Notes under the pieces: generated by a model
The model's database searches: none
What the model was told of the DNA's origin: nothing
Seen by the model: only the letters and a program-made list of their open reading frames with translations
Position numbers and translations under genes: made by a program
Source of the DNA: Patescibacteria group bacterium
Lineage (GTDB): Bacteria > Patescibacteriota > Minisyncoccia > UBA6257 > GWB1-50-10
Length of the DNA stretch: 64,000 bases
Assembly: GCA_030017555.1 (NCBI GenBank)
Contig: JASEIC010000001.1
Span: forward strand, 2,571-66,570
Reading direction: 5' to 3'
In this document: positions 4,357 to 60,666 of the stretch, one piece after another
How the letters are laid out: each line of letters starts with the position of its first letter
How positions within the stretch are numbered: position 1 is the stretch's first letter

Positions 4357-5559
4357 ATGAAAATACTGGCGATTGAAACATCCTGTGATGAAACTGCTTT
4401 GGCTTATATTGAAGCAAGGGACGGAATTACAAAACCGCGATTTAAGATTTTAGAAAATCTTGTTTCATCGCAAATTAATATCCATCGGCCTTGGGGCGGC
4501 GTAGTGCCGAACCTTGCCAAACGCGAACACATAAAAAATCTGCCTTTAATTTTTAAAAAATTCTTTAAAAAACATAAACCGAAACCAAATCTCATGGCTG
4601 TAACCGTCGGGCCTGGACTTGAACCAGCTCTTTGGGCAGGAATTAATTTTGCTCTAACCATTCACAAAGATTATTTCTCGTCCGCCAGCCGGCGAATCCC
4701 GCTTGTCGGCGCAAACCACTTAGAAGGGCATCTTCATAGTTTTTTACTGCCAAAAACAACTGGCGAAGAAATTTTAAAGAAAAGAGGGTTAAAATTTATT
4801 TTTCCGGCGGTGGCGCTTGTGGTAAGCGGCGGGCACACGATTTTACTTTTAATGAAATCGCTCACTGATTGGAAAAAATTAGGCGAAACCCGAGACGATG
4901 CTGTTGGCGAAGCATTTGATAAAGTGGCGAAAATGCTAAATCTTCCTTATCCCGGCGGACCGGAAATCTCCCGTCTCGCTTTAACCGGCGATTCCAAAGC
5001 CATTAAATTCCCCCGCCCAATGATTAATTCGGAAAGTTATGATTTTAGTTTTTCGGGACTCAAAACATCCGTACTTTATTTTCTCAAAAACAATGAAGCT
5101 AAAATTGTTTTTGATATGGGCATGTCCAAAACGCGTTCAAAAATCAACGAACGAATAGAAAATTTACCGGGCGCCCGCGCGCGAAGCAAACAGGGCGGTA
5201 AATTTTCGTCTATGAGCGAGTTAGATTTTAACGCGCGTGGACTTGCAAATAAAAAAATAATTTTAGCTGACATAGCCGCAAGCTTTCAACAAGCCGCTAT
5301 TGATGCTTTGGTCAAAAAAACAATGCGCGCTGCCAATGAATTCAGGATAAAATCAATTCTTCTTTCTGGCGGCGTGGCTGCCAACAAACTACTCCGTGAA
5401 ACTTTGATAAAAGAAACCAAAAACAATAACTTAAACTTTTTTGTGCCGCCGATAAATTTTAACACTGACAATGCCGTCATGATCGCCGTCGCGGCGTATA
5501 TTAACTTTTTAAAAAACAAAAAATATCCGCTTCGTGCCAATGGAATTTTAAATTTATAA
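4357..5559 (+). CDS. tsaD: tRNA N6-adenosine threonylcarbamoyltransferase TsaD (Kae1/YgjD family) with a lineage-specific insertion
   Basis: MKILAIETSCDETALAYIE N-terminus, GANHLEGHL metal-binding motif, and C-terminal SGGVAANKLLRE. Confidence 0.85.
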   Translation: MKILAIETSCDETALAYIEARDGITKPRFKILENLVSSQINIHRPWGGVVPNLAKREHIKNLPLIFKKFFKKHKPKPNLMAVTVGPGLEPALWAGINFALTIHKDYFSSASRRIPLVGANHLEGHLHSFLLPKTTGEEILKKRGLKFIFPAVALVVSGGHTILLLMKSLTDWKKLGETRDDAVGEAFDKVAKMLNLPYPGGPEISRLALTGDSKAIKFPRPMINSESYDFSFSGLKTSVLYFLKNNEAKIVFDMGMSKTRSKINERIENLPGARARSKQGGKFSSMSELDFNARGLANKKIILADIAASFQQAAIDALVKKTMRAANEFRIKSILLSGGVAANKLLRETLIKETKNNNLNFFVPPINFNTDNAVMIAVAAYINFLKNKKYPLRANGILNL

Positions 5560-23139: not shown

Positions 23140-23154
23140 GAAAATTTTTGTAAG

Positions 23155-23226
23155 TGGGCACTGAGGGGATTGAACCCCCGACCTACTCGGTGTAAACGAG
23201 TCGCTCTACCACTGAGCTAAGTGCCC
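23155..23226 (-). tRNA. tRNA-Val (anticodon UAC); no CCA encoded
   Basis: Reverse complement gggcacttagctcagtggtagagcgactcgtttacaccgagtaggtcgggggttcaatcccctcagtgccca folds as a cloverleaf with anticodon loop ttTACac. Confidence 0.85.
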
Positions 23227-23237
23227 TCAAATCTAAC

Positions 23238-23280
23238 GGGGTGAATAAACTGAACGCTCTAATCACTGAGCTATGCGCCC
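23238..23280 (-). pseudogene. Orphan tRNA 5'-half fragment: acceptor 5' strand, D-arm and start of anticodon stem, with no 3' partner
   Basis: Reverse complement gggcgcatagctcagtgattagagcgttcag... has a perfect acceptor/D-arm but no complementary anticodon stem, T-arm or acceptor 3' strand before tRNA-Val begins. Confidence 0.5.
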
Positions 23281-23286
23281 AAGCTT

Positions 23287-23362
23287 TGGTGGGCGCGGAA
23301 GGGATCGAACCTTCGACTTCTGACTTATAAGGTCAGCGTTCTGCCACTGAACTACGCGCCCC
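23287..23362 (-). tRNA. tRNA-Ile with genomically encoded UAU anticodon; CCA encoded
   Basis: Reverse complement gggcgcgtagttcagtggcagaacgctgaccttataagtcagaagtcgaaggttcgatcccttccgcgcccacca. Anticodon stem ctgac/gtcag with loop ctTATaa. Confidence 0.8.
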
Positions 23363-23374
23363 CAAACATTCTAG

Positions 23375-25252
23375 TTATTTAATAACTATCGGTTTAAGAT
23401 TAAAACTTTTTATAATTTTGTAAAACTCTTCATGTTCTAAAGTTTCTTTTTCAATCAAGATTTTAGCAATTCTATCAAGTGTTTCTTTTCGAGTTTCAAT
23501 TATTTTCTTAGCCGTATTTAAAGCTTTATTTATAAGACTTTTTACTTCTTTATCTATTTCCGCGCCAATTTCTTCAGAATAATCCTTTTCAGTAGAAATC
23601 TCGCGGCCTAAGAAAATAAGCTCTTGGGTTTTACCAAAAGACCTTGGACCTAATTTTTCATTCATTCCGTATTGAGTAATTAATCGATGAGCTAATTCAG
23701 TCGCTTGCCGAATATCACTTGAAGAACCGGTGGTAATATCTTTAAAAATTAAAAGTTCCGCCGCGTAACCGCCAAACGAAACCGCAAGATCTGTTAAAAA
23801 TTGAGACTTGGTTCTTAACCGCCGCTCTTCAATTGGAAGTTTAATAGTATAACCGCCGGCAATACCGCGACTAACAATTGAGACTTTATGAATCGGATCG
23901 GCTTCTTTTAATGACGCCGCAACCAACGCATGGCCTGCTTCGTGATAAGCGGTAATTTCTTTTTCTTTTGGTGAAATAATTCTGCTTTTTCTAGCAGGAC
24001 CTAAAAGCACTTTTTCAATAGAAGTTAAAATATCATCTTGAGCAATGATTTTGCGATTATGCCTTGCCGCCATAATTGCGGCTTCATTCAGTAAATTAGC
24101 GAGATCAGCGCCGGCAAAACCCGGCGTTCTTACGGCGACAGTTTTTAAATCGGTATTTTTATCCAAATTTTTCCCGCGACTGTGAATTTTTAAAATTTCC
24201 TCCCGGTCATTTATATCCGGCATATCAAGAATAACTCTTCGATCAAATCGGCCGGGACGCAAAAGCGCTTGATCTAAAATATCAGCCCGATTTGTCGCAG
24301 CTACAACAATAACATTTGTATCCCGTTCAAAACCGTCCATTTCCACCAAAATTTGATTTAGGGTTTGCTCCCTTTCGTCATGCCCGCCACCCAAACCAGC
24401 GCCACGCTCACGCCCGACCGCATCAATCTCATCAATAAAAACAATGGAAGGCGCGGCCCGCTTTGCGGTTTGAAACAAATCTCTTACCCGGGATGCGCCA
24501 ACGCCAACAAACATTTCCACAAACTCTGACGCGGAAATATGGAAAAATGGAACATTTGATTCGCCAGCGACCGCTCGCGCAAGAAGAGTTTTGCCTGTAC
24601 CTGGTGGGCCCATTAAAAGCACGCCACGGGGAATTCGAGCGCCGATTTCCAAAAACTTTTTTGGATTTTTTAAAAAATCCACAACTTCTTCTAATTCTTC
24701 TTTTGATTCCCTAAGCCCGGCCACGTCTTTAAAAGTTACCTTATCGCGCGATTGAGCAAAAAGACGAAGATTAACTTTACCAAAAGAAAAAGCTTGATTA
24801 ACGCCGGTTTTTGCCTGACGGAAAATCCACCAAAAAAGAGCGACCAAAATAATAATTGGCAAAAGAGAAGGAATAAGAATGCCTAACCAATATTTAATAC
24901 CGCTTTCGTCTTCGATTTTGTAAGAAACTTTTTGGAGCGCTTTTTCGTCAACGCCATAGTTTTTCAAAGTTTCCGTAAGCGAACTTTCGGCTTCTTTCCG
25001 AGAAATAGCATTAGTGCCGTCTTGAAGCAAAACCTTAACATCAGAACCGCCAACTGTAATATTTTTTACTTCACCAGCGTTAATCTTTTCGGCAACCTGA
25101 TCTAAAGTAAGTATCTGCGCGTCCGGCGAGCTAGATTCAAAAAGAAACGAAAAAAGAAGAGTAATGGAAAAAAGGACAATAAACGCCCAAAAGAAATTTT
25201 TGCCTAAATTTTTCATCCTTAAAATATTACAGGAATTTAAAACGAAAATCAA
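23375..25252 (-). CDS. ftsH: ATP-dependent zinc metalloprotease FtsH
   Basis: Walker [17 protein letters not shown] region, and zinc motif HEAGHA. Confidence 0.95.
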
Positions 25253-25305: not shown

Positions 25306-25974
25306 TTAAAATTGAAGAATTATTCCCCTGCAATACGCTTCAGCAATTCTGATTATCTTGTTTTTAATAGTAAATTCCGTATCTTTTTCATTTACAATTA
25401 ATGCGGGAATTTTATGGCCAAATTGACGCGCGTGCTCTTTTAATCCCTCGAATGAACTTTTTACCTGAATCGGTATTTCTTTTTGTTCTTCTTTGGAAAT
25501 AAATAAAATATTAAGATCAATACCATCATATCGGTCTTGATTTTTTGTGGACAGCCAAACATCCCTCACTGGTGAATTGCCAATCATATTTTTTGCTGTT
25601 GCAAAAACCATATCTTCATGCTGCCAACCTTTTTTACGAGCGTTAATTTCCCTTAAAATTGTCTCCGTCAAATCTTTAAAATCAGGAACTTCTTTTAAAA
25701 AAATTTGGCCGTGATAAGCCGATTCTCTGTGCCGCCAATCCTTTACTGGTTCAATGAATTCAATTTTTAAACGCGGTTTGTCTTTTCTTATTTTAAGAAT
25801 AAATTCAATTAGTCTTGCTTCTACTTTTCCTTCTTTGTAACCTTCAATTACATTATTGTCCCGTAAATCTTTTAAGACTTGTCGAATTAAACTTTTGCTC
25901 CAGCTAATTACTCTTGATCGCAGTTTGGTTTTTTTCATTTTCAGCACCGTCCTTTTCTTTAATTGACTGCTCAA
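25306..25974 (-). CDS. Hypothetical protein, possible PD-(D/E)xK-like nuclease fold (weak)
   Basis: 222 aa. Segment YDGIDLNILFISKEEQKEIPIQVKSS loosely resembles D...(E/Q)xK nuclease motifs. The overlap with the next gene makes the exact start uncertain. Confidence 0.4.
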   Translation of the reverse strand: MSSQLKKRTVLKMKKTKLRSRVISWSKSLIRQVLKDLRDNNVIEGYKEGKVEARLIEFILKIRKDKPRLKIEFIEPVKDWRHRESAYHGQIFLKEVPDFKDLTETILREINARKKGWQHEDMVFATAKNMIGNSPVRDVWLSTKNQDRYDGIDLNILFISKEEQKEIPIQVKSSFEGLKEHARQFGHKIPALIVNEKDTEFTIKNKIIRIAEAYCRGIILQF

Positions 25975-26215
25975 TCACGTGTTTTACGTTATCGAAATTA
26001 ATCGGGAAAAAAGAATCAAAATTAATAACAATCGGACTTTTATTATCAGCGCGAATTATTCGAGCTTTTATTTTAAAAATCTCTTTGGTTGATGACTGGA
26101 TTACTGAAAAACTTTCAATACCAAACATACCTCTTTTTTTTAAACTGCAAAGAGCTGATTTAATGGTAGAAATTCGAACGTTTAATTCATTAAAGCTAAT
26201 TAGTGGTTTTTTCAC
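25904..26215 (-). CDS. Hypothetical 103-aa protein; overlaps the downstream gene by 35-71 nt
   Basis: ORF only. No motifs. Confidence 0.35.
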   Translation of the reverse strand: MKKPLISFNELNVRISTIKSALCSLKKRGMFGIESFSVIQSSTKEIFKIKARIIRADNKSPIVINFDSFFPINFDNVKHVIEQSIKEKDGAENEKNQTAIKSN

Positions 26216-26351
26216 TCTGTTTCCTTATTTAGTTATCAAATTTAGCTAAAGTAAAACATAACACTAACTAGAAAATAATGCAAGGTGTTATAAAAATGAA
26301 AAGCCCCGCAAGATTTTTAGTTCTGGGGGCTTAAATATTACTTTAAATTAT

Positions 26352-27128
26352 TTAGACGGCTGTCGGCTGGGCAGAAATCCCTTTTCGAGTCGCATTCACC
26401 ATATCCCAATAAGCATTTTTTTCGGCTAAATCAGTGATCGCGTAGTGCGGCGGGCACTCTTCGTAAAAGCAGTTATGGCTTGCTTTAAACCATGCCTGTT
26501 CTGCGGCTAGCGTAAAATTCTTTTCTGCTATTTTACGCATAATGTGTTCGGGCGGAGAATTGCCATCAGCGATCCAAAAGAATGCTTCGTTCGTCCACTT
26601 AATAGTTGGCGTTTCTTCATGAAACTCAATCGCGGTTTTCGTAACTCGGAAGTCAACTGGCAGCTTCTTCGCAAGAAGGTAGAAACTATCGCTTTCCGGC
26701 ACAATGCTATATGCGATGATAGTCCCAAAATCGCGAAGCGCGCTCGCTTCCACGACATAAAGCACATCGTGGACAGTACGAAATCCAGCAATTGGACCGT
26801 TGGTCCACTCAACTGGCAACTTTTGACCAAGTCGGTTACAGATAATCTTCCCACAATTCGGTTCGCTAATTTCTACCGCTTGAAGTTGGAAGAAAAACTT
26901 CAAACCCTGAGGAATTTCAACTAACGGAACGATCTTATAAATCTCTTCACCCGTCTTTTCGGTAAAGTCATCTTCAAGACTACAGAGAATTTGTGTCCGA
27001 GGCACATTTTTTCCCCCTTGCCGAACAAACATCACTTGTTTATTTTTCTTGTTTAAGGCAAGTTCTCGAAATTGCCCGCGATGACCATTGATCATCGCAA
27101 AAACTTCAACGTTGTTTAATTTAGTCAT
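26352..27128 (-). CDS. Hypothetical 258-aa protein encoded by a GC-rich compositional outlier gene; monocistronic with its own consensus promoter and terminator
   Basis: Visibly higher G+C than its neighbours, with overlapping alternative-frame ORFs. SD AGGAG upstream of the ATG. Promoter at 27186-27214(-). Hairpin terminator at ~26295-26330. Confidence 0.55.
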   Translation of the reverse strand: MTKLNNVEVFAMINGHRGQFRELALNKKNKQVMFVRQGGKNVPRTQILCSLEDDFTEKTGEEIYKIVPLVEIPQGLKFFFQLQAVEISEPNCGKIICNRLGQKLPVEWTNGPIAGFRTVHDVLYVVEASALRDFGTIIAYSIVPESDSFYLLAKKLPVDFRVTKTAIEFHEETPTIKWTNEAFFWIADGNSPPEHIMRKIAEKNFTLAAEQAWFKASHNCFYEECPPHYAITDLAEKNAYWDMVNATRKGISAQPTAV

Positions 27129-27245: not shown

Positions 27246-28334
27246 TTACCCTTTAAATTTCAAAATAATGCGTTTTTCCTCAGGTTTTATACCTTCAATT
27301 ACAAATTGATATTCTTTACCCTGAACAATCTGTTTTTTCATTTCTTCAACACTGCCAAATTCAGTAACGCTTAATTGTCCCTGAAGCTCATTGCCTAAAT
27401 CAATAATCGCGCCAAATGGATTAAAACTATAAACCTTTCCTTTTGCTTCTTGACCTTTTTTATAATGCTCGCCGAAAGTGAGCCACGGATCAGAAACGAG
27501 GACCTTAAGAGAAAGCGAAATTTTACCATCTTTAATTTCCGTAATTTTAACTTTTACCACATCATCAACTTTTACTATTTCTTTCGGATTTTCGATTATC
27601 CGGTGACTTAATTCCGAAATATGGATTAAGCCTTCAACCGCGGGATTATCCGTAAACCTTACAAAAACTCCAAAATCAGCAACGCTTGAAACAATACCTT
27701 CCACAATCTGACCTACTGAATAATTTTTGACTAATTCTTTTGTTGAAATTTCAGTTGCCTCTCTTTCAGAAACAATAAGTTTGTTGTTTCTGGGATTTGC
27801 TTCAATTATTTTTACGGTTAATTCCTGGCCAACCAGAAGCTCGAGAGCCTGAGAAAAACCCGTTTTATTATCAACTGCCGTTTTTGGATAATGTTCGGTT
27901 GATAATTGGGAAACCGGCAAAAACGCCTGAAGACCGCTAATAACTCCAGTAAGTCCGCCTTTGTTAAAAGCTAAAAATTTAACTTTAATTGGTTCGTCTT
28001 TTTCTTTTATTTCTTGAACTTCAGCCCAAGCTCTTTGTTTGCCGGCTTCAGAAAGAGAAAGCTCAACAAAACCTTCTTTATTATCAACGGTAATAACTTT
28101 AGCATGAACAATATCGCCGACTTTTAAATTTTTCACGGCTTCCTTGGCATTTTGAACTTCGGCTCGATAAACCGCGCCTGTGCCAAATCTACCCAAATCA
28201 ACCATAAGCATATTGGATCGATTCTCCAAAACTCGTCCTTCCACTAAATCTCCTGTTTTAAAAAGCGAAAAAAGTCCAGGCTCGAATTTAATAAGCTGGG
28301 AAATTAGCGCGTTGTTATTTTTATTACTATTCAT
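27246..28334 (-). CDS. rpsA: 30S ribosomal protein S1 (short form with four S1 domains)
   Basis: Repeated S1 OB-fold repeats (GDLVEGRVL..., GDIVHAKVI..., GQELTVKII..., GQIVEGIVS...). Confidence 0.75.
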   Translation of the reverse strand: MNSNKNNNALISQLIKFEPGLFSLFKTGDLVEGRVLENRSNMLMVDLGRFGTGAVYRAEVQNAKEAVKNLKVGDIVHAKVITVDNKEGFVELSLSEAGKQRAWAEVQEIKEKDEPIKVKFLAFNKGGLTGVISGLQAFLPVSQLSTEHYPKTAVDNKTGFSQALELLVGQELTVKIIEANPRNNKLIVSEREATEISTKELVKNYSVGQIVEGIVSSVADFGVFVRFTDNPAVEGLIHISELSHRIIENPKEIVKVDDVVKVKITEIKDGKISLSLKVLVSDPWLTFGEHYKKGQEAKGKVYSFNPFGAIIDLGNELQGQLSVTEFGSVEEMKKQIVQGKEYQFVIEGIKPEEKRIILKFKG

Positions 28335-34653: not shown

Positions 34654-36006
34654 ATGGAGAAAAAACTTCATCTTTTTCTTTTTCTGCTTATCCTTGCTTT
34701 TAACATTCTTTTTCACGTTTTTAATATCGCTTATCCGGCAAAACCAGTTTTTGATGAAGCCCATTTCGCGACTTATGCCGCCCGTTATGCTACTCATCAA
34801 CCGGTCTTTGACATTCATCCGCCTTTGGGCAAACTTTTTTACGCCCTTCCTTTAATTTTTAATCCGGAAAAAGCAAATATTTCTGATGCGAATTTTATTG
34901 AAATGAAAAAAAATCAAAAAACCGGTATTTTTGAAACAACAACTCCTAAAAAAGAATATAGCAACTTTCCTTATGTTCCCTTACGCTTGGTAAATGTTTT
35001 TTTTGGCATCTTGCTTTCAATTTCTGTATTTGCTTTTTTAAAAGCTCTTACGAAAAACAATTTAATTGCTTTATTGGGCATGTTTTTAACTGTTTTTGAC
35101 AACGCCCTGCTTCTTGAGGGCCGTTTAATTCTTTTAAATATAATGTATTTGTCTTTTGGCTTTTTCTCGCTTGCGCTTTTTTTCAAACAAAAATCCTCGC
35201 CGATTTTAGCCGGAATTATTTGGGGGTTTGCTTTAAGCGTGAAATTAATTTCAATAGTTTTTTTGGGCCCGGTTATTACTTTAATTATCCTTTCCAAAAA
35301 TCAGGAAAAATTTAACGCTATAAAAAAATTTGTTATTTTTCTTTTTATTGGGTTCTTTGTCCTTGCCATTGCTCTACTTTTTATAAATCCGATTATTTTC
35401 GGAGCAAACAACAGCCTAAACTTCTATAAAACTCTAATAAGCGATTTAAATCCCGATGCTCAAATAATAAAAAATCCGTTTTTCTCGTTTTTAAATCCTA
35501 TCGCCTCCAACATAAAAGTGGCGGCTATTGAGTTTTATGTAATGCTTTCGGGCTACACCACCGGCGCGTCGCCCCATCCATCTCAAAGCCATTGGTACGC
35601 GTGGCCTATTATGCAAAAAACCATTCCATATTTTATAGAATCGACAAATGAAACAACCAAAACAATCAGCCTTATTGGAAATCCTGTAATTTGGGCTTTG
35701 GGTTTGTTGTCAATATTATTTTTTATTTTCAGAAAACATAAAATTTTTGAAGGTCTTGAAAAAGAAACATGGATAATTTTCATCGGTTATCTCGCTTCAC
35801 TCTTGCCTTATATTTTCATATCCCGCCCGGCCTTTCTTTATCACTACTTCCCCGCTCTTATTTTTTCAATTTGTCTTGCTTCAATTTTTATTGCTAAAAA
35901 AAATAGAAAAGATGAATTAAAAATAAACAAGGTTTTGTTAATAAGTTTAATAACAATTATTATAACAGGATTTATAATAATCTTACCCCGTACGTACGGT
36001 TTCTAA
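34654..36006 (+). CDS. PMT-family (GT39-like, GT-C fold) protein O-mannosyltransferase or related polyprenyl-phosphate-sugar-dependent glycosyltransferase
   Basis: Loop-1 DE motif in PVFDEAHFATYAARY (compare VFDEVHFG of Pmt1) and a polytopic membrane topology. Start trimmed to MEKKLHLF with an SD. Confidence 0.65.
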   Translation: MEKKLHLFLFLLILAFNILFHVFNIAYPAKPVFDEAHFATYAARYATHQPVFDIHPPLGKLFYALPLIFNPEKANISDANFIEMKKNQKTGIFETTTPKKEYSNFPYVPLRLVNVFFGILLSISVFAFLKALTKNNLIALLGMFLTVFDNALLLEGRLILLNIMYLSFGFFSLALFFKQKSSPILAGIIWGFALSVKLISIVFLGPVITLIILSKNQEKFNAIKKFVIFLFIGFFVLAIALLFINPIIFGANNSLNFYKTLISDLNPDAQIIKNPFFSFLNPIASNIKVAAIEFYVMLSGYTTGASPHPSQSHWYAWPIMQKTIPYFIESTNETTKTISLIGNPVIWALGLLSILFFIFRKHKIFEGLEKETWIIFIGYLASLLPYIFISRPAFLYHYFPALIFSICLASIFIAKKNRKDELKINKVLLISLITIIITGFIIILPRTYGF

Positions 36007-36014
36007 TTTTTAAA

Positions 36015-37238
36015 ATGCATTTATTGTTCCAAAATTTAAAAAAATACATTGATCCTATAATTTTGATATCCTGTTTTTCTAACTTAGGAATCATTTTAAT
36101 AACCTTCAATATCATAACAAATACCGCTGAACATTTTTCTTACTTGGCTGAAAGTTTTATAAGTGGCGTTACTTATTTTCTTAAAATGCCGGCAATGAGC
36201 TGGGGTGATACAACGCTTTTCAATAATCACTATTATTGGCCTCTTGGTCCTTTTCCGGCCGTACTTCTCATTCCATTCGTATGGATATTTAAACAATTCA
36301 ACGTATTTTTCCACCAAGGTTATCTTCAATTGCCAATAGTAATAGGAATAGGATATCTTTTTTTTGCTGTTGCCAAACGATTAAAAATAAATAACCGCGA
36401 TTCGCTCTACGCAACTCTCGCATTCATTTCATCATCCTTCTTTATGTTGGCTATTCAGCCTTCCGGTTGGATATTTTCTCAAATAATAGTTATTTTCTTT
36501 ATATTTCTTGCCCTTCTTGAATATTTAACCCGCAAACGGTATCTAATTATCGGATTTTTAATGGGGTGTGTACTTGCCACTCGAATTACTGCCGGACTTG
36601 GCATTTTATTTTTTGTGCTTGATATTATATTTTCTCAAGAATCAAAAAAAATAAAATATCAAAATCTCATAAATCTTGCTGCACCGTTTATGATTATAAT
36701 TATATTACTTGGTTTTTATAATTACCTAAGATTCGAAAATTTTTTAGATTCCGGATATAAACATCAAATCCTTACAAATCCCGCTCTTATAAAAGCGCGG
36801 GATTACGGACTTTTTAGCATTCATCACCTTGCTTCAAATCTTTATTATTTTCTTTTAGCCGGCCCGATTCCGGTCTTTAAAGACAGCATTTCCCGCGTCC
36901 TTGCTTTTCCGTTTATAAAACCCGATCCATGGGGCATGAGTATATTTATAACATCACCATATCTACTTTATATGTTCTGCTTAAAATACAAAGACGGGCT
37001 TTCTAAAATTATTTTAATTACTGCCACGATTATTGCTTTACCAATATTTCTTTATTATGGCATCGGTTGGATACAATTTGGTTACCGTTACGCATTTGAT
37101 TTTTTGCCGTTTATATTTCTTCTCTTTATAAAAAATTACAATGATCGTTACCATAATTTCTCAAAACTTTTAAAAATTATCATAGTTTTCTCGCTCTTCT
37201 TCAACCTGTTTTTAATATTTACGGGCTTCTTAAAATAA
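36015..37238 (+). CDS. Polytopic membrane protein, possible GT-C glycosyltransferase (hypothetical)
   Basis: 407 aa with ~10 TM segments, in an operon with glycosyltransferases. Confidence 0.4.
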   Translation: MHLLFQNLKKYIDPIILISCFSNLGIILITFNIITNTAEHFSYLAESFISGVTYFLKMPAMSWGDTTLFNNHYYWPLGPFPAVLLIPFVWIFKQFNVFFHQGYLQLPIVIGIGYLFFAVAKRLKINNRDSLYATLAFISSSFFMLAIQPSGWIFSQIIVIFFIFLALLEYLTRKRYLIIGFLMGCVLATRITAGLGILFFVLDIIFSQESKKIKYQNLINLAAPFMIIIILLGFYNYLRFENFLDSGYKHQILTNPALIKARDYGLFSIHHLASNLYYFLLAGPIPVFKDSISRVLAFPFIKPDPWGMSIFITSPYLLYMFCLKYKDGLSKIILITATIIALPIFLYYGIGWIQFGYRYAFDFLPFIFLLFIKNYNDRYHNFSKLLKIIIVFSLFFNLFLIFTGFLK

Positions 37239-37256
37239 AAACCAATCAAATATCAT

Positions 37257-37964
37257 ATGGATAAAATTATTATTATCATGCCTGCCTATAATGCGGAACA
37301 AACGCTTAACAGAACTTATCAAGAATTGCCAAAAATATATTCCGAAATAATCCTATGCGACGATGGCAGTAAAGACAAAACCGTTGAAATAAGCCGTACT
37401 TTGAACATCACGACCCTCTTTCATAAAGAAAATAAGGGGTACGGCGCAAACCAAAAAACGCTTTATAACTCGACAATGCAAAAAAATCCAGAAATCATTG
37501 TTATGGTTCACCCAGACAATCAATATGATACAAACTCTATTCCTCTCATGGTGGAAATAATCCGAAGCGGAAAAGCAGATATGGTATTAGGATCAAGGAT
37601 AAAAACAGCTCTTCAAAACGGAATGCCGTATTGGAAATATATTAGTAATAGATTTTTATCTTTTATGCAAAACTTAATATTTAAAACTAATTTATCAGAA
37701 TTTCATTCTGGGCTACGAGCATATAAGGCTTCGATTTTTTTAAAAATGCCTTATCAAAAATTTAAGGACGATTTTACATTTGATAGTGAAATTATTGCTT
37801 GGCTTATTGCGCACAAAATGACGATTAAAGAGATTGATACACAATGTTTTTATACAAAGGAATCGATCTCAAAAACAAATCTTAGACAAAGCATCAATTA
37901 CGGCATCGGCACTCTAAAAACTCTTATAAAATATTTGTTTGGTTATTACAAAAATTTAAAATAA
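37257..37964 (+). CDS. GT2-family glycosyltransferase (polyprenol-phosphate mannose/glucose synthase-like)
   Basis: MDKIIIIMPAYNAEQTL and the DDGSKD DxD-type region typical of Dpm1/GtrB-like GT2 enzymes. Confidence 0.65.
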   Translation: MDKIIIIMPAYNAEQTLNRTYQELPKIYSEIILCDDGSKDKTVEISRTLNITTLFHKENKGYGANQKTLYNSTMQKNPEIIVMVHPDNQYDTNSIPLMVEIIRSGKADMVLGSRIKTALQNGMPYWKYISNRFLSFMQNLIFKTNLSEFHSGLRAYKASIFLKMPYQKFKDDFTFDSEIIAWLIAHKMTIKEIDTQCFYTKESISKTNLRQSINYGIGTLKTLIKYLFGYYKNLK

Positions 37965-37966
37965 CC

Positions 37967-40021
37967 GTGAAAACTCCTAATAAAAAATACGATTATGTAT
38001 TTATAGTGCCGGTTTTTAATGAGGCGTTCATTATTGATCGGTCTTTGAAACTGCTTCTTTCTTTTTTGGAAACCGAATGGATTCACAAAAACAGTGATTG
38101 GAAAATTATTGTGGCTGACAATGCTTCAGCCGATGATTCACGTCAAATTTTGGAAAAACTAAAAAAAGAAAACGAATCTCACGTTGATTACTTATTCGTA
38201 CCCATCAAAGGGCGTGGCAATGCCTTAAAAGAAGTTATAAAAACTTTTGATTCTCAATATTATCTTTATCTCGACGCCGACATACCAATCAATCTCAAGG
38301 AATTGCCCTCAATGTTCGGACCTCTTGAAAACAAAAGGGCTAATCTTACTGTTGGTAGTCGCCGCGGTAAAAGACCTTGGCAAAGAAAAATACTTACTTA
38401 CGGTCTAAAATTTATTGATTGGCTAATTTTTGATTTGAAAATTTCAGATTCTCAATGCGGTATCAAAGCCTTTGATCAAAAAACCGCTTCTTTATTATTA
38501 GAAAAATGCGAAGAAATTGGCTATTTTTTAGATACCGAACTTTTGATTCAAGCCCAAAACAATAATCTCAAAACCCAAGAAGTACCAATTAACTGGATTG
38601 AACAGCGTTACCCGGAAAGAAAAAGCAAAGTTAATTTAATATCCGACGCAATAAAAGCTTTAAATACTATTAAAAAATTAATTCTAAGAACTTGCCCAAA
38701 AATAATATCAAGCACAATCAGTATTGTTACAATCGGTATATTATTATTTGTTATTTTTATCTTTAACAAAATCTACCTTACACTTCCAAATTTTCTAGTT
38801 GCGCATCAATTCCAAGAATCTGCAAAAAAAGTGGTAATTTTTGCTTTTATTTTTTTTATATTTTCAATATTTATCTGGCATGTAACAAAGAAAATAAAAA
38901 ATCTCCCACAAAAATTTGCAACTTTTTTAATCGCTACTGTTTTTATTGCCATCTCCTTAATTGCTATTTTTACCAAACCAACCAGATCACAAGATATTTA
39001 CTGGAACTTACTTTTAACCAAAGGGTTTACTGAACAAGGTCTTAATCCTTACAAAACAACTCCAGAAATATTAAAAAACGATCCGTGGTCGCCGCCAGTT
39101 AAAGATTGGCGCAATCTTTCAATGACCCATGGACCTCTTTGGATTATATTTCTAAGCATTTTCACAACCTTAAAATTATCATTAAATACTTCTCTTATTT
39201 TTATAAAATTAATTTATTTTTTAATTTTGCTTTTTTCCGGTTTTTTAATTTTTAGATTAATGAATGAATTTAATTTTGATGCTGTGAAAAAAAATCAATT
39301 ACTTCTGGTTTTGGCTTGGAATCCAATTTTATTCCAAACAGCTTTAATTGATTTACATAATGATGTTTTTATTCTTTTTTCTATATTAATAAGTTTTTTC
39401 TTTTTTACCAGAAAAAAATACGAACTCAGCACATTGTCTTTGATAATCGGGGGGTTTATAAAATACGCCCCATGGCTTTTAATTCCCTTACCCCTTTTTT
39501 ATTTATTAAAAGGGGGTAACGTTAAAAAAAATATAATCAAAATTATCTTAGGAATCGGAGTTTTTTTGCTTCTAGCTTTCATATTTTATTTACCTTTTGG
39601 TTTTTCCGAGAAAAATTTTGTTGGTTTATCAGTCGAACTCTCTGAACGTAGCAACTATTTTTTTTCGCTTCCAAGTACAATAATTTTTCTGTTATTTCTA
39701 AACCCTTTACAAATAAAATTTTTAGGAATTATCCTGGGATTTTTTGCAATTTATTATTGTATTCAAAAAAATAAACCGTTTTTAGGCTACTTACTTCCTT
39801 TTTTATTAATTTTTCTTTTTGCCACGCCTTGGTTTCAACCATGGTACGTTTTATGGATTCTACCTCTTCTTGCTCTTTCCTGGTCAGTTGAAGCAATTCT
39901 ACTTTTTTCAACTATCCTTATTTTAATGCACGAAGCCATGCCATCTCTCATAATTTCTTTGTTAATCGGCCCTGCTATATTAATAATCTATCTAATAAAA
40001 AAATCGGGATTTTTAAAATAA
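37967..40021 (+). CDS. Fusion of a GT2 polyprenyl-phosphate sugar synthase domain with a large C-terminal polytopic (GT-C-like) membrane domain
   Basis: N-terminal YVFIVPVFNEA...LDADIP...SQCGIKAF GT2 motifs, then ~12 TM helices. Architecture resembles Ppm1/AglD-type fusions. Confidence 0.6.
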   Translation: MKTPNKKYDYVFIVPVFNEAFIIDRSLKLLLSFLETEWIHKNSDWKIIVADNASADDSRQILEKLKKENESHVDYLFVPIKGRGNALKEVIKTFDSQYYLYLDADIPINLKELPSMFGPLENKRANLTVGSRRGKRPWQRKILTYGLKFIDWLIFDLKISDSQCGIKAFDQKTASLLLEKCEEIGYFLDTELLIQAQNNNLKTQEVPINWIEQRYPERKSKVNLISDAIKALNTIKKLILRTCPKIISSTISIVTIGILLFVIFIFNKIYLTLPNFLVAHQFQESAKKVVIFAFIFFIFSIFIWHVTKKIKNLPQKFATFLIATVFIAISLIAIFTKPTRSQDIYWNLLLTKGFTEQGLNPYKTTPEILKNDPWSPPVKDWRNLSMTHGPLWIIFLSIFTTLKLSLNTSLIFIKLIYFLILLFSGFLIFRLMNEFNFDAVKKNQLLLVLAWNPILFQTALIDLHNDVFILFSILISFFFFTRKKYELSTLSLIIGGFIKYAPWLLIPLPLFYLLKGGNVKKNIIKIILGIGVFLLLAFIFYLPFGFSEKNFVGLSVELSERSNYFFSLPSTIIFLLFLNPLQIKFLGIILGFFAIYYCIQKNKPFLGYLLPFLLIFLFATPWFQPWYVLWILPLLALSWSVEAILLFSTILILMHEAMPSLIISLLIGPAILIIYLIKKSGFLK

Positions 40022-40075: not shown

Positions 40076-40160
40076 GGGCAGGTGATGAAACTGGCAGACA
40101 TGCAAGGTTTAGGACCTTGTGCCGCAAGGCTTGAGGGTTCAAATCCCTCCCTGCCCACCA
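40076..40160 (+). tRNA. tRNA-Leu (anticodon UAG), class II with long variable arm; CCA encoded
   Basis: gggcaggtgatgaaactggcagacatgcaaggtttaggaccttgtgccgcaaggcttgagggttcaaatccctccctgcccacca. Anticodon loop ttTAGga. Confidence 0.85.
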
Positions 40161-43130: not shown

Positions 43131-44015
43131 TTATTTTCTTCTTCGGCCATGGAAAGCTTCGTGAACTTCGCGAAGTTCTTTATTGGTAATGTGCGTGTAA
43201 ATCTGAGTCGTTGAGATGTTGGCGTGCCCCAGAAGCTCCTGGACCGAGCGCAAATCCGCGCCGTTTATCAAAAGATCGGTCGCAAAACAATGTCTTAAGA
43301 GATGCGGATGAACTTTTTTAGAAATCCCGGCCTCACGAGACCTTAAATCAACTAATCGCTCAACTGCTCGAGGCGTAATTCGTCCAATAACTTCGTTGCT
43401 CTTTGTTAAACTCACAAAAAGAGCTTCTTCAATATCAGTTCGTTTATTTAAATATTTTTTAATGGTTTGTTTTGCCATATCAGCCAGAAAAACAACACGC
43501 AATTTATCGCCTTTGCCGCGGATAGATATTTCACCACGCTCCAAATCAATATTGCGATTTAACTTGCAAAGTTCAGATAACCGAAGACCCGTAGAAAACA
43601 GGATTTCTAAAATCGCGCGATCCCTCAAGCTCCGAAGATCGTTGCCGCCTGAAGCATTAAGCAAGCGTTCTAATTCTTTATAATCCAAAATTTCGATATC
43701 GCGACGCGAAACTTTTGGCAATTCAATTGTTTCGGGAGATAAAACTTCTATACCGCGTTTAATTAAATATTTTAAAAAATTTCTGATGGCAATGACATAA
43801 TAGCTTTGGGTTATTTTTTTCAGTTCTTGCCTTGAAAGGGAAACGCGAAAACTTCTTATCACTTCGGGCGTAATATCTTTTACTTTTTTAATGTTTGTTC
43901 CTTTTACGAATGCATTTAAATAACGCTCATAATTTTCCCGGGTTTTCAAAGACCGGTTTTTTTCAACTTCCAAATAATCCAGGTAGTCTTTTAAATAATT
44001 TTCTATTTCACTCAT
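43131..44015 (-). CDS. Tyrosine recombinase, XerC/XerD-like
   Basis: Catalytic R...HxxR...Y tetrad (LRDRAILEILFSTGLRLSEL; HLLRHCFATDLL; GHANISTTQIYTH). 294 aa. Confidence 0.8.
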   Translation of the reverse strand: MSEIENYLKDYLDYLEVEKNRSLKTRENYERYLNAFVKGTNIKKVKDITPEVIRSFRVSLSRQELKKITQSYYVIAIRNFLKYLIKRGIEVLSPETIELPKVSRRDIEILDYKELERLLNASGGNDLRSLRDRAILEILFSTGLRLSELCKLNRNIDLERGEISIRGKGDKLRVVFLADMAKQTIKKYLNKRTDIEEALFVSLTKSNEVIGRITPRAVERLVDLRSREAGISKKVHPHLLRHCFATDLLINGADLRSVQELLGHANISTTQIYTHITNKELREVHEAFHGRRRK

Positions 44016-54580: not shown

Positions 54581-56374
54581 ATGCTAAAAACGCAAAAAAT
54601 AATTACTATTTTCCTTGTTATTTCAGTTATAACCGCCGGCTTTTTCTTTCCTTTTCAAATAAAAGAGGCTAAAGCGGACATTGCCGGTGATTTTACGAAA
54701 CATTGTGTTGGCGACTTACTTTTTGATATAGGGTTGGAGTTAGGTCTTGGTAATGTCATTACTAAAATTGAAGAATTTCTTTCGCCAGGATCAGTGCCTT
54801 CAAGTGATGCAAATACTAAAGCGGAGCTAAGAAGATTTGAGCTTAAAGAATGTTTTAGGCGCTTAAAAGATCTGGCAATTGTTGCGGCCCACAATTATTT
54901 GAAAAAACGGCTTTTAGACCGGCTTGTTGACCAGACTGTTCAATGGATTCAAAACGGCGACGAACCAAGATTTGTCAGTGACTTTGACGAATTTCTTAAA
55001 GACGCGCACCAAGCGGCCGTTGGCGATACGCTTCGCGATATTGGTTTGGCAAAATTATGCGATGGGACTTTCGGAGCAAAATTAGAGCTTACTTTGGGAA
55101 AACGCGAACCGAGAAAGCTGACCCGAGACGTTACCTGCACATTAGATCAGGTTGTAGGCAATATTAATGCTTTTCGCAATGACTTTCAAAAAGGCGGCTG
55201 GCTTGGCATTCAAGAGGCCGCAAATCCAAGAAATAATATCTTTGGTTTAAAACTCATGGTTGTGGACAGAACAATCCGAGAAATTAGTATAAAACAAGAA
55301 ACAACTAAAGCTGAAGTCGCGGCAACCGGAATTAAGCCCCAAAAAAAATGTCTTGAATACACACTACTGGACAAAAAAACAGACGCTATTCTTAGACCAG
55401 GAGACTTTCATCCAATTGGCTCTGGCGGCTCTGATATGCTTGTGGGTCTAAATCCTACACCAGCTAATGCTGACGGCACGCCGCCAAGTCTATATGATGT
55501 AGCTATTAATTCCGGCCGCGCTTATTGGCGCTGTTCTAATGAACAAATAATAACTCCGGCTAACACCATAGCCGCAATAATAGCTAAAACCGGGGGCTTA
55601 GATTATGATTATATTTTAAACAGCGAAGATGTTTCTTCTTATTTTTCAGTTATATCTGACGCATTAATCAATCGGCTTACCACTGAAACCGGCAAGGGTT
55701 TGCGCGGTCTTTTTAAAGGCGGCGGCAGTCCTTCGCGAGGCGACGCAGGGTATCGCAACACTGATTATATAGACAGTAATACCGCTACTGCAATCCAAAA
55801 CTACGAAGGCACACTTACTGAAAATTATGAACTTAGCCCTGCCACAATAACCGCCAGTAAAGATGGTATGCTTGCCGCGATTGCTAAAGCCACTTCTTCT
55901 ATTGCAAATGCAGGAATAAATCTTAATACCGCAACACCAAAAAGATTAGAATTACTTCATTTGCTTTCTAACACGGCATTGAAGCCGGGTTGGGGCCTTA
56001 TTCAATGCATAAATCATATTGCAAATGTACACTCGCCCTTCACTTATGCAAGCGATCCGCCTATTGGACCAGACGTCCAAAGCACTTATGATTCTTACAA
56101 CACAGGCGGCGCTAACGCGCAAATTATTACGTCTTTAACAAATCAAATCGCGCCGCTTAATACTTCGGCAAACACCTTAAAAACCCAGGTAACAAACGCG
56201 GTTACTTCAGCAGATATTACGGCTTTAATACCTAAAGTAAATTCGCTTCTTACTGACGCTAAAAGTCTTGAAACAAATTCTCAATCAATCTTAAACGGGT
56301 TAGTAGAATTAGTAGCAACCGCCACAAATCAACGTCGGGACTGCAATGATTTTGATAGCGAATTTGATTCATAA
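54581..56374 (+). CDS. Secreted 597-aa protein (hypothetical; possible T4SS surface/adhesin component)
   Basis: Signal peptide MLKTQKIITIFLVISVITAGFFFPFQIKEAKA. No catalytic motifs recognised. Confidence 0.45.
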   Translation: MLKTQKIITIFLVISVITAGFFFPFQIKEAKADIAGDFTKHCVGDLLFDIGLELGLGNVITKIEEFLSPGSVPSSDANTKAELRRFELKECFRRLKDLAIVAAHNYLKKRLLDRLVDQTVQWIQNGDEPRFVSDFDEFLKDAHQAAVGDTLRDIGLAKLCDGTFGAKLELTLGKREPRKLTRDVTCTLDQVVGNINAFRNDFQKGGWLGIQEAANPRNNIFGLKLMVVDRTIREISIKQETTKAEVAATGIKPQKKCLEYTLLDKKTDAILRPGDFHPIGSGGSDMLVGLNPTPANADGTPPSLYDVAINSGRAYWRCSNEQIITPANTIAAIIAKTGGLDYDYILNSEDVSSYFSVISDALINRLTTETGKGLRGLFKGGGSPSRGDAGYRNTDYIDSNTATAIQNYEGTLTENYELSPATITASKDGMLAAIAKATSSIANAGINLNTATPKRLELLHLLSNTALKPGWGLIQCINHIANVHSPFTYASDPPIGPDVQSTYDSYNTGGANAQIITSLTNQIAPLNTSANTLKTQVTNAVTSADITALIPKVNSLLTDAKSLETNSQSILNGLVELVATATNQRRDCNDFDSEFDS

Positions 56375-56380
56375 AATTCT

Positions 56381-58801
56381 ATGCGGAAACATTTAAAGAA
56401 AATCGCGTTAATATCAATCCCGATAATCATCTTAATTTCTCTTGTGCCAATACTGGCTCATAGTCAGGGCTTTTGGGAAGTTTTAAATCCAATTAACTGG
56501 ATTAAGTGGGCAATAATGGCTGTTCTTTACCTTATTTCTTATATCGGCACATTATTTTTCAGTTTGGCGGGTTATTTGGTCGGTTTCTTTTTAAAATTCA
56601 ATTATGGAATTTTAAATTCAAATAATTTAATTGACCGCGGCTGGGCAATCACAAGAGATATTGCCAATCTCGGTTTTGTTCTGGTAATCGTGATTATTGC
56701 CCTCGCTACCATCTTACGATTTCAAGAATACGGCTACAAAAAACTCTTGCCGAAACTTATCGCGGCGGCAATTCTTGTAAATTTCAGCCTGGCCATTGCC
56801 GGCGTTTTTATTGATTTTTCCCATGTTTTAACCAAACAATTTTTCAGCGCGGTTGAAAGCCCGGGCACTGATATAGTCCAAGTGCTCTCCGGCGCCTTTG
56901 AGCCGCAAAAATTTTATACCGAACCTCTTGACCCGGCTCCAATTGACCCTGAAGAAGAAGCCGGCGGCTTTGAAGGATTTACGGTTTCCGTGCTCCTTGA
57001 TATTTCAAAACTTTTATTTACGGCAATTTTTATTTTTGCCGCGGCATTTGTTCTGTTTGCTTTTGCTTTTATGCTTCTTCTCCGATATATTTATTTATCG
57101 CTTCTTTTGGTTATCGCGCCTATTGCCTGGCTTTTTTGGGTTTTTCCGGCTTTGTCGGGCCAATTTAAAAAATGGTGGAGTAAATTCCTGGAATGGGTAT
57201 TTTTCGCGCCCGTTGTCGCTTTTTTCTTTTATTTAACGCTCACTTCCATAAAAAGCTTGAATCAAAACGCTCTTTTGCCGGACGGCACGTTCTTTAAAGG
57301 CACTCTTTCTGATTTAATGGCTCAAGGCGCGAAAATGGTTTTGCTCATCGGCCTTCTTTTTGGCGGCTTAATTATTGCCCAACAAATGGGTATTACCGGC
57401 GCGGCCGGCGCCATGAAAATGGCAAACACGGTCGGCAACAAAACCAAAAAATGGGCCGGAGAGAAAATGAAAGCTGGCGGTATTGCGGCTGGCAGACGAG
57501 CTCTTACGACCGGCGCTGGCAAAGATTTGGAAGGCAAATCCGCGCTTGAAAGAGCTGGAGAAGGAGTTGGCGGCAAGCTGGCGGAGTGGGGTTCCACAAA
57601 ATGGGGCAGGCGCTTTGGCATTGGAGTCTTAAGTAAACCATTCACCGGTATTGCCGGCGCGTCAGCTCAAGCTAAAGAAAAATTAAAAGCTGAAACCGAA
57701 GCCAGAGCAAAAAAGAGAATGCCGGAATCTTCGGAACTTGCTTTAGCGCGAATGCGTCTAGAATTAAGCAAACCTGAAGCGCTTGCTGATTCAGCATCAA
57801 CTGTCGCTAGTTTTACAAAAATCGCTCAAGATAAAAAAATGTGGGGTAGCCTAACCCCGCAAGAACAAGAAAAAATGCGGGATCGCGCTATTTCCGCCGG
57901 CCGGAAAACTAATTCTCTAGATAAGGTCATAGATGCCGACAAAGCATTGCTGGATCGACCGGAAATATTACCCGACGAAAAATTACTCAAGGCTTCTCTT
58001 GACGCGCAAAAATCTCCGGACTTTGAAAATCTGCCGGATGACATAAAACAAGCTATTTATGAAGGAATAGCGAGAACAGTTTTAAAACTGCCGGATAATC
58101 TAACGGATATCGCGCCTAATATTATAAAACTGCTTGAAAATAAAGACGCCCGCGAAATCATAAGACAACGCGGCTTAGAAGACGCGCTTTACAGCAAAAT
58201 AGAAGCTTCCAATGCTACCGGAGCCGTTAATAGAAACTTGCGTATTCAAGCTGCCGCGCTAGATCCTAGCAGGTTTTTTGAAAGTCTAGGTTTTGATGCG
58301 CCAAGCATATCAAATGACGAAAAAGATGAATCAATGAAAGAAATTCTTTCCAGAGTAAAAGATCCGGCAAATCTGATAATAAATGATCTAAGCGCTCTTT
58401 CCCAAAATCAGCGCGCTATTCAAACACGCCTTGTTCAAAATTTGAGCTTTAATCTGCACAGTAAAATTGGCAGTGAAGGTTCGCCAGAACTTAAAACCAA
58501 CACTATTCACACTCTTGCAAGAGGCATTGATCAACTTACTGGCACAAATACTTTTGCTGATCTTAAAAAGTTCTCTGGTGATATTAAGGAATTTGAAGAG
58601 CAATACGAAGCCTTAAGACGAGAGAAGGGCGCAAACGATAGCTCTACTCTGGCTAAAGCTGCTCAATTCAACCAAGCCAAAACCGATCTAAAAACAGCAG
58701 AAACAAATCTTAAAAACATCTCCAAAGACGCTCATCAACTTTGGCAAGTTTATCAAAAAGATCTTAAAGACACCAATTATCAAGACGCAACTTGGCCTTA
58801 A
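56381..58801 (+). CDS. VirB6/TrbL-like polytopic membrane protein with a long C-terminal hydrophilic domain (TcpH/PrgH-type)
   Basis: ~8 N-terminal TM helices over ~330 aa, then a ~470-aa charged domain. The architecture matches Gram-positive VirB6 homologues. Confidence 0.5.
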   Translation: MRKHLKKIALISIPIIILISLVPILAHSQGFWEVLNPINWIKWAIMAVLYLISYIGTLFFSLAGYLVGFFLKFNYGILNSNNLIDRGWAITRDIANLGFVLVIVIIALATILRFQEYGYKKLLPKLIAAAILVNFSLAIAGVFIDFSHVLTKQFFSAVESPGTDIVQVLSGAFEPQKFYTEPLDPAPIDPEEEAGGFEGFTVSVLLDISKLLFTAIFIFAAAFVLFAFAFMLLLRYIYLSLLLVIAPIAWLFWVFPALSGQFKKWWSKFLEWVFFAPVVAFFFYLTLTSIKSLNQNALLPDGTFFKGTLSDLMAQGAKMVLLIGLLFGGLIIAQQMGITGAAGAMKMANTVGNKTKKWAGEKMKAGGIAAGRRALTTGAGKDLEGKSALERAGEGVGGKLAEWGSTKWGRRFGIGVLSKPFTGIAGASAQAKEKLKAETEARAKKRMPESSELALARMRLELSKPEALADSASTVASFTKIAQDKKMWGSLTPQEQEKMRDRAISAGRKTNSLDKVIDADKALLDRPEILPDEKLLKASLDAQKSPDFENLPDDIKQAIYEGIARTVLKLPDNLTDIAPNIIKLLENKDAREIIRQRGLEDALYSKIEASNATGAVNRNLRIQAAALDPSRFFESLGFDAPSISNDEKDESMKEILSRVKDPANLIINDLSALSQNQRAIQTRLVQNLSFNLHSKIGSEGSPELKTNTIHTLARGIDQLTGTNTFADLKKFSGDIKEFEEQYEALRREKGANDSSTLAKAAQFNQAKTDLKTAETNLKNISKDAHQLWQVYQKDLKDTNYQDATWP

Positions 58802-58817
58802 TTTAATTATTTAAAAT

Positions 58818-59738: not shown

Positions 59739-59823
59739 AACACGCCCATGAATCCCGTTAGAAGCAACTAAATCATGAAACCTATAAATACTAAGCATTT
59801 ATCTGAATCAATAAAAGGGATGA

Positions 59824-60121
59824 ATCCCTCACCCTTGAAAAACTAACTGATTATGTTTTACATTTATCTACTAAAATCAAGGCTTAATAATGGTTTTTGT
59901 GTTGGGTTTACGCCTGACTTGAAATCCAGACTGCTAAAACATAATCGGGGAGATGTTTTATCAACAAAACGTTATCTGCCTCGGGAATTAATGTACTATG
60001 AAGCGTATAAATCTAAAAAAGACGCTGTCTTGCGAGAAAAACAGCTTAAACGATTCGCCAAAAGCTTTTCGATGTTAAAACGTCGACTTAAATATTCCTT
60101 GGTTTTTCAAGGGTGAGGGAT
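59824..60121. mobile_element. Inverted-repeat-bounded GIY-YIG cassette (copy B of the tccctcaccc repeat family)
   Basis: 20-bp perfect inverted repeats atccctcacccttgaaaaac (59824-59843) and gtttttcaagggtgagggat (60102-60121) bracket ORF 59853..60116. Confidence 0.5.
59853..60116 (+). CDS. GIY-YIG nuclease-domain protein (YhbQ/UPF0213-like, 87 aa)
   Basis: FYIYLLKS...GFCVGFTPDLKSRLLKHNRG...STKRYLPRELMYYEAY...REKQLK matches GIY-YIG motifs. Its stop TGA lies inside the right repeat. Confidence 0.7.
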   Translation: MFYIYLLKSRLNNGFCVGFTPDLKSRLLKHNRGDVLSTKRYLPRELMYYEAYKSKKDAVLREKQLKRFAKSFSMLKRRLKYSLVFQG

Positions 60122-60617: not shown

Positions 60618-60666
60618 TAACACAAAAAATATTTAGTTCGACTATAATAAATTTAATCACACTTTC

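Follow-up and report, generated by a model that had tools for sequence, protein, structure and literature searches.

The window, a 64-kb stretch of patescibacterial DNA that was analysed as a whole, raises the question of how a bacterium reads the codon AUA when its tRNA-Ile carries the anticodon UAU. In bacteria, lysidine and TilS are regarded as near-universal and essential (according to one paper, PMC12514573, about 98% of the bacterial genomes that have been annotated contain tilS), and UAU decoding is described as a rarity: tRNA-Ile(UAU) was reported in 9 bacterial species belonging to three clades (Taniguchi 2013, PMC3575796), and in 17 bacterial genomes (Bifidobacterium, Mycoplasma and Neorickettsia) in a tRNAscan-SE 2.0 survey of 2021 (PMC8450103). 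A sequence-only reading of the window had proposed such a gene, had named Mycoplasma mobile as a known example, which agrees with the literature (PMC3575796), and had called tRNA-Ile(UAU) rare. The rarity holds for the two surveys, but not for the lineage studied here, where this tRNA is the rule (58 of 80 loci). In the searchable literature we found no relevant paper linking tilS or lysidine with the CPR, Patescibacteria or Parcubacteria; a Parcubacteria genome paper deals with truA loss and with positions 38-40 of the tRNA, but with neither tRNA-Ile nor tilS (PMC4508563).

The tRNA-Ile(UAU) gene and its surroundings

The window is a piece of Patescibacteria chromosome (CPR, Paceibacteria/Parcubacteria type) with a GC content of about 38%, in which ARAGORN found three tRNA genes in all, Val(tac), Ile(tat) and Leu(tag). 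These genes and those next to the tRNA-Ile gene are:

23287..23361, minus strand: tRNA-Ile(UAU) (ARAGORN, Rfam, orthologue alignment and covariation)
23154..23226, minus strand: tRNA-Val(UAC), the conserved neighbour downstream of the tRNA-Ile slot (ARAGORN, Rfam, synteny)
23240..23280, minus strand: apparent decayed 5' half of a tRNA-Val gene (best local matches with tRNA-Val(tac/gac) of related loci)
23375..25252, minus strand: ftsH (AAA + M41 protease), the locus anchor (Pfam; synteny in 58 loci)
40076..40160, plus strand: tRNA-Leu(UAG) (ARAGORN)

The tRNA-Ile(tat) called by ARAGORN is 75 nt long, with CCA encoded at 23287-23289, and Rfam RF00005 matches 23290-23361 (-) over its full length (model positions 1-71) with 74.4 bits and E = 1.9e-14. 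On the minus strand the gene reads GGGCGCG-TA-GTTC-AGTGGCA-GAAC-G-CTGAC-CTTATAA-GTCAG-AAGTC-GAAGG-TTCGATC-CCTTC-CGCGCCC-A-CCA, with the anticodon TAT (U34 A35 U36) at 23327-23329 (-). The sequence-only reading had placed a tRNA-Ile(UAU) at 23287-23362 and left its strand unstated: both programs find the gene, the strand is minus, and position 23362 is an extra G lying 5' of position 1. The stems it had listed (7-bp acceptor, gttc/gaac, ctgac/gtcag and gaagg/ccttc) are all found in the sequence, and the loop cTTATAa and the encoded CCA are both seen on the minus strand.

The Ile identity set of E. coli includes A73, C4-G69, U12-A23, C29-G41, A37 and A38. The window tRNA has A73, C4-G69, U12-A23, A37 and A38, whereas its 29-41 pair is G-C. 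The proposed Ile identity holds up: the tRNA has most of the set, and AUA is read as Ile in an FtsH alignment (see below).

The ftsH stop codon is 13 nt upstream of tRNA-Ile(UAU). When the surroundings of the tRNAs were scanned for promoters and terminators, no site rose above shuffle expectation, and none at all lay in the 13-nt gap; a promoter of its own is therefore unsupported for this tRNA, and co-transcription with ftsH is the simplest reading and probably the right one. On the other side, a 41-nt sequence (GGGCGCATAGCTCAGTGATTAGAGCGTTCAGTTTATTCACC) sits between tRNA-Ile(UAU) and tRNA-Val(UAC). It corresponds to the acceptor, the D arm and part of the anticodon arm of a tRNA-Val and was called neither by ARAGORN nor by Rfam; since relatives often have both a gac and a tac tRNA-Val behind tRNA-Ile, it looks like a decayed second copy.

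Among the other products of the window are ValRS, NusA, FtsK, RecA, FolD, SHMT, GyrA, PNPase, KsgA and RecO, together with glycosyltransferases and a VirB4/TraG-like ATPase. ValRS is the only aminoacyl-tRNA synthetase of this set in the window, with no IleRS (NCBIfam), and neither an rRNA nor an S12 gene lies within the 64 kb. Three further regions may be mentioned. Large ORFs without family match (597, 806 and 306 aa), then a TraC-like ORF and the VirB4/TraG-type ATPase (61311-63068), lie in 54581-63434 (+), a combination similar to the type IV secretion-like cluster known from Patescibacteria. The GC content falls to 31% over 36001-40000 (about 38% elsewhere), in a block of glycosyltransferase and PMT-family genes that extends up to tRNA-Leu(UAG). 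A tyrosine recombinase gene is found at 43131-44015 (-).

Conservation of the UAU tRNA in related species

A search with FtsH over 185,579 species genomes, in which the best relatives of the window protein were 76% identical, provided 80 ftsH-anchored loci from related species. Their labels are Paceibacterota, Minisyncoccia, Wolfe-, Jorgensen-, Harrison-, Colwell-, Azam-, Nealson- and Yanofskybacteria, and similar ones. Minisyncoccia, the label of L020 and L055, is a class with a cultured representative, Minisyncoccus archaeiphilus (PMC12281837). A tRNA-Ile(tat) gene is present in 58 of the 80 loci; it is mostly separated from ftsH, on the downstream side, by less than 250 nt, and the next gene is usually a tRNA-Val (tac or gac). 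The figure has to be read knowing that 7 of the 22 loci without the gene end at most 250 nt from ftsH and so cannot show it.

The 58 tRNAs were aligned with that of the window. Identity to the window tRNA ranges from 57 to 82%; C32, U33, U34, A35, U36, A37 and A73 are invariant in 59/59 sequences, U12-A23 is found in 57/59 and C4-G69 in 48/59, and position 38 is variable (A 30, C 24, U 5). In the cloverleaf, 99.2% of the cells are paired and 18 of the 21 pairs show compensatory double changes, the covariation score being 0.758 versus 0.17 in shuffles and at most 0.11 in slid registers. With a match far beyond chance, and 58 orthologues paired with compensatory changes, the window gene is confirmed as a genuine tRNA-Ile with a UAU anticodon. 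The alignment indicates in addition that this tRNA is functional, under selection and fixed for the UAU anticodon. It is not an artefact of sequencing, nor is it a pseudogene or a gene acquired recently.

One oddity was revealed. With the UAU tRNAs of its closest FtsH relatives (L001-L003, with C38), that of the window shares only about 60% identity, and identity reaches 82% with those of Yanofskybacteria-like genomes that are more distant (L054 and L069, with A38). This mismatch with FtsH kinship suggests either fast compensatory evolution or occasional replacement of the tRNA gene within the clade.

The slot of tRNA-Ile2(CAU) and the local loss of tilS

TilS was sought by a scan for its PP-loop motif, and then with an HMM built from four CPR TilS sequences (E <= 10). 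It was found in four of the 80 ftsH-anchored loci (L039, L049, L052 and L068), where it adjoins ftsH on the upstream side; three of the four proteins are recognized by NCBIfam TIGR02432 (186-197 bits), and the TilS of L052 is 80% identical to that of L049. None of these four loci has the UAU tRNA, and L049 and L052 have a tRNA(cat) in its place. With the same HMM and threshold, no TilS-like ORF was detected in the 64-kb window, and the 10 kb around ftsH are free of TilS in all the UAU loci (0/58). A CAU tRNA was found neither in the window nor in any UAU locus. About 11 ftsH loci with enough flanking DNA have neither tilS nor the UAU tRNA, so that the linkage of tilS to ftsH is not universal.

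A second, independent sample consisted of 80 tilS-anchored metagenome loci. The UAU tRNA is absent from all of them (0/80), and hence from all the tilS-bearing loci of both samples (0/84). In about 45 of the 80 loci tilS adjoins ftsH and, where the sequence extends far enough downstream (L082, L088, L095, L096, L105 and L115), ftsH is followed, after about 1 kb, by tRNA(cat) and tRNA-Val(gac). On the other side, a gene for an S1-domain protein precedes tilS by 0.5-2.1 kb in 28 tilS loci, and by less than 1.1 kb in 26; the UAU loci where the S1 gene adjoins ftsH with no gene in between number at least 14, among them L006-L008, which are close relatives of the window (L008 is on the 680-kb contig JAYRXE010000037.1). 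The gene order is thus S1 - tilS - ftsH - x - tRNA-Ile2(CAU) - tRNA-Val in the TilS lineages, and S1 - ftsH - tRNA-Ile(UAU) - tRNA-Val in the UAU lineages. The window has the latter arrangement, with about 2 kb of orphan ORFs added between the S1 gene and ftsH:

25306..27128, minus strand: three orphan ORFs of 222, 103 and 258 aa (no Pfam or NCBIfam match)
27246..28334, minus strand: S1-domain protein gene (rpsA-like), upstream border of the ancestral S1 - tilS - ftsH group (Pfam, synteny)

The orphan ORFs fill the position that tilS occupies in tilS-bearing relatives. The 222- and 258-aa ORFs have no homologue in the 160 related loci, the 103-aa ORF being outside that query; all three may be a lineage-specific insertion.

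As to the nature of the tRNA(CAU) of the CPR, over 95% of its length it shares 86-87% identity with the CAT-anticodon gene located beside mug in E. coli, ileX, which is a tRNA-Ile in the RefSeq annotation. The nearest relatives of the CPR tRNA(CAU) among 265 tRNAs are the UAU tRNAs, and the window tRNA has no blastn match in E. coli genomes. The comparison with E. coli indicates that the CAU tRNA of tilS-bearing Patescibacteria is tRNA-Ile2. Taken with the gene orders, it places the UAU tRNA in the slot of tRNA-Ile2(CAU), with tilS locally lost. The loss of tilS and tRNA-Ile(CAU) that the sequence-only reading had suggested for the lineage is therefore supported at the local level, since tilS is missing from the 64-kb window and from its slot between S1 and ftsH, and the UAU tRNA sits where tilS-bearing relatives keep tRNA-Ile2(CAU). 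As a source of the UAU tRNA, synteny favours this slot over tRNA-Ile1(GAU), of which there is one gene in the data.

The distribution of the two states was then compared with a neighbour-joining tree of 105 near-full-length FtsH proteins, i.e. a weak phylogeny based on one protein. The window falls inside a clade of 67 leaves, of which 57 have the UAU tRNA, none has TilS and 10 have neither (several of these on truncated contigs); all 27 leaves of the sister clade have TilS and none has the UAU tRNA. Two UAU loci, L071 and L075, do not join the main UAU clade but a third group, of mixed composition, and this could reflect a second origin or an artefact of the tree. That group also includes Falkowbacteria-like loci with neither tilS nor the UAU tRNA near ftsH. 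Because of these two loci, and of the use of a one-protein neighbour-joining tree, a single origin of the UAU state is likely but not proven. For the complete scenario, in which one ancient event, at the root of a major Paceibacteria/Parcubacteria clade, removed tilS and turned tRNA-Ile2(CAU) into tRNA-Ile(UAU), we only lean towards acceptance.

Use and meaning of the AUA codon

In 43 long ORFs of the window, AUA occurs 398 times in 16,814 codons, which corresponds to 23.7 per 1000 and to 24% of the Ile codons; AUG, with 13.3 per 1000, is rarer. Such a heavy use of AUA means that the cell needs an efficient AUA reader. The AUA frequency was a point on which the sequence-only reading had wanted information, and the answer is that the codon is in common use.

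The meaning of AUA was assessed by comparing the ftsH codons of the UAU lineages with the residues found in the corresponding columns of the FtsH proteins of the TilS lineages. AUA columns contain 52% I, 17% V, 13% L and 3.6% M. The values for AUU and AUC are 55% I in both cases, while AUG columns contain 34% M. Columns with 90% Ile or more contain 140 ATA codons of the UAU lineages; columns with 90% Met or more contain 6, versus 198 ATG. Since AUA aligns like AUU and AUC, and unlike AUG, these columns indicate that AUA is Ile in the UAU lineages, with no reassignment.

A probable replacement of the TilS/CAU pair, and its alternatives

The explanation that we hold to be probable is that the window tRNA is a functional AUA-reading tRNA-Ile, the positional successor of tRNA-Ile2(CAU), which replaced the pair formed by TilS and the CAU tRNA, as in Mycoplasma mobile, and did so across a large CPR clade. 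In the ancestor of this clade, position 34 of the minor Ile tRNA encoded downstream of ftsH would have changed from C to U or, instead of a point change, the minor tRNA gene would have been replaced by a copy with U34; tilS, located directly upstream of ftsH, would have been deleted after the change in the tRNA. In present-day cells, the tRNA would be transcribed, probably with ftsH, and processed, and A37 would probably be converted to t6A37 by the TsaD pathway, for which the window has a gene:

4357..5559, plus strand: tsaD, t6A37 synthesis (NCBIfam TIGR03723, 335.6 bits)

A t6A37 next to U36 would fit both the presence of this gene and the modification found in M. mobile tRNAIle2(UAU), which has t6A37 and an unmodified U34 (PMC3575796). 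Charging would be ensured by IleRS through A73, C4-G69, U12-A23 and A35-U36-A37-A38, with an anticodon-binding site that presumably tolerates U34, and U34 would pair with the A of AUA. By analogy with the known cases, such an IleRS would have Arg or Lys at the position of W905 in E. coli (W890 in S. aureus), or else be of the eukaryote type. Misreading of AUG would be limited by the ribosome, by the competition of tRNA-Met, or by some modification of U34. While the gene, its conservation, the Ile meaning of AUA and the local loss of tilS come from the present data, the adaptation of IleRS, the state of U34 and the avoidance of AUG are what we infer from M. mobile. With the ValRS of the window as a probe, the 80 related loci yielded only ValRS genes and one unrelated locus; none of them encodes IleRS.

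The tRNA could be the same decoder with another chemistry, namely with a U34 modified to pseudouridine, or to an xm5U or s2U derivative, so that its reading is restricted to AUA. Pseudouridine is found at U34 in eukaryotic tRNA-Ile. A related Wolfebacteria locus encodes MnmA, the U34 2-thiolase (L015:20203-21291, plus strand, 368 bits), which points to at least some U34 modification capacity in the UAU clade, and the variation of position 38 next to invariant positions 32-37 fits a loop recognised by an enzyme. Such a modification was also raised as a possibility for M. suis by Taniguchi et al. (PMC3575796). Against it, the locus has no linked gene for a candidate modifying enzyme, and U34 is unmodified in M. 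mobile, the sole bacterium of this group to have been analysed chemically. We regard a modified U34 as possible, though on the unlikely side.

The only serious rival to a replacement is redundancy: the UAU tRNA would work beside a tilS and a tRNA-Ile2(CAU) located elsewhere in the genome, tilS having merely moved away from ftsH. The 64 kb examined leave room for both genes outside them, the related ftsH loci with neither tilS nor UAU tRNA nearby (about 11) show that tilS is not always beside ftsH, and the two systems do coexist in Lactobacillus casei, L. plantarum and Cyanothece (PMC3575796). What makes redundancy doubtful is that tilS and the UAU tRNA are mutually exclusive in 142 loci (0/58 and 0/84), that the UAU gene is in the slot of the CAU gene instead of being added beside it, that the two states split into sister clades of 67 and 27 leaves, and that CAU tRNAs are absent from the window and from every UAU locus.

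Phages often carry tRNAs for rare codons, and an accessory tRNA brought by a phage or mobile element could supplement AUA decoding in an AT-rich genome. Apart from the three orphan ORFs just upstream of ftsH, which would suit such an origin, the evidence goes the other way: the post-ftsH position is kept in 58 species-level relatives, the flanking genes are core housekeeping genes, 2.9 million viral contigs contain no exact match, and the matches in GenBank phages are at most 83% identical and of mixed isotypes, i.e. a generic tRNA resemblance. Synteny and the viral searches thus lead us to reject a phage or island origin as very improbable. Finally, AUA is read as Met in several mitochondrial codes, yet a change of code, with the UAU tRNA charged with Met or another amino acid, is the least probable of all and was rejected since AUA is found in Ile, Val and Leu columns as AUU and AUC are, is nearly excluded from conserved Met columns, and is matched by a tRNA with conserved Ile identity elements A73, C4-G69 and U12-A23.

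Comparison with known systems

The replacement that we propose has its closest counterpart in M. mobile (PMC3575796), with which the window shares a genomic UAU tRNA-Ile, a small AT-rich genome, a tilS missing from its expected place, an A37 after U36 where t6A is expected, and the reading of AUA as Ile. Two differences should be noted. The loss in M. mobile is a tip event in the Mollicutes, while here it is common to a clade of at least 57 sampled species; and in M. mobile the acceptance of U34 by IleRS through Arg865, the counterpart of W905 in the E. coli enzyme (PMC3575796), the unmodified U34 and the discrimination by the ribosome have been demonstrated, while the Patescibacteria are known here from the sequence of the tRNA and its locus. 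Bifidobacterium and Neorickettsia have tRNA-Ile(TAT), no tilS and a eukaryote-type IleRS (PMC3575796; PMC8450103). They resemble the window in that tRNA-Ile(UAU) replaces tRNA-Ile2(CAU) and tilS is absent (here, at the locus); they are thought to manage by means of their horizontally acquired eukaryote-type IleRS, and the likeness here concerns the tRNA and the locus. A parallel also exists with the tRNA-Ile3(UAU) of Nanoarchaeum equitans and Korarchaeum cryptofilum (PMC8450103), which are likewise ultra-small or deep-branching prokaryotes where a modified-cytidine system gave way to a UAU tRNA, but these are archaea, in which it was the agmatidine/TiaS system that was replaced instead of lysidine/TilS.

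With the canonical pair of tilS and tRNA-Ile2(CAU), which both E. coli (ileX) and the sister Patescibacteria (L049, L082-L122) have, the window has in common the reading of AUA as Ile and, for the sister Patescibacteria, the neighbourhood S1 - [tilS] - ftsH - tRNA - tRNA-Val. It differs by its anticodon, TAT instead of CAT, by the absence of tilS from the slot, and by a tRNA without blastn match in E. coli; the CAU tRNA of the CPR, in contrast, shares 86-87% identity with ileX. In B. subtilis, a suppressor of a tilS deletion is reported in which the anticodon of tRNA-Ile1 went from GAU to UAU (Fabret 2011; Koehrer 2013, PMC3919564). The evolutionary logic is the same, as one anticodon change can make tilS dispensable; the suppressor, however, arose in the laboratory and comes from the major tRNA-Ile1, while synteny points here to the tRNA-Ile2 slot.

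What the UAU state would mean for the Patescibacteria

AUA decoding by a UAU anticodon without TilS is already known, and the window tRNA is a further case of it. What appears unreported in the searchable literature is the scale, i.e. that the UAU state is the norm in a large clade of Patescibacteria, with a clean syntenic before and after when it is set against the tilS-bearing sister clade. If this is true, it would be by far the largest bacterial clade to decode AUA without lysidine, with AUA as a common codon (about 24 per 1000), and it would imply clade-wide adaptations of IleRS and/or the ribosome that keep U34 off AUG. On the practical side, tilS would be unsuitable for these genomes wherever a universal single-copy or essential marker is wanted, and tRNA-Ile(UAU) is what annotation pipelines should be prepared to find in them. 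The work on M. mobile left the question of how an unprotected U34 reads AUA without misreading AUG, and sister clades with and without TilS would allow a comparative search for changes in IleRS, 16S rRNA and S12. To conclude, if a class-level clade of the CPR does use UAU decoding together with heavy use of AUA, what was an exception would become a major natural experiment.
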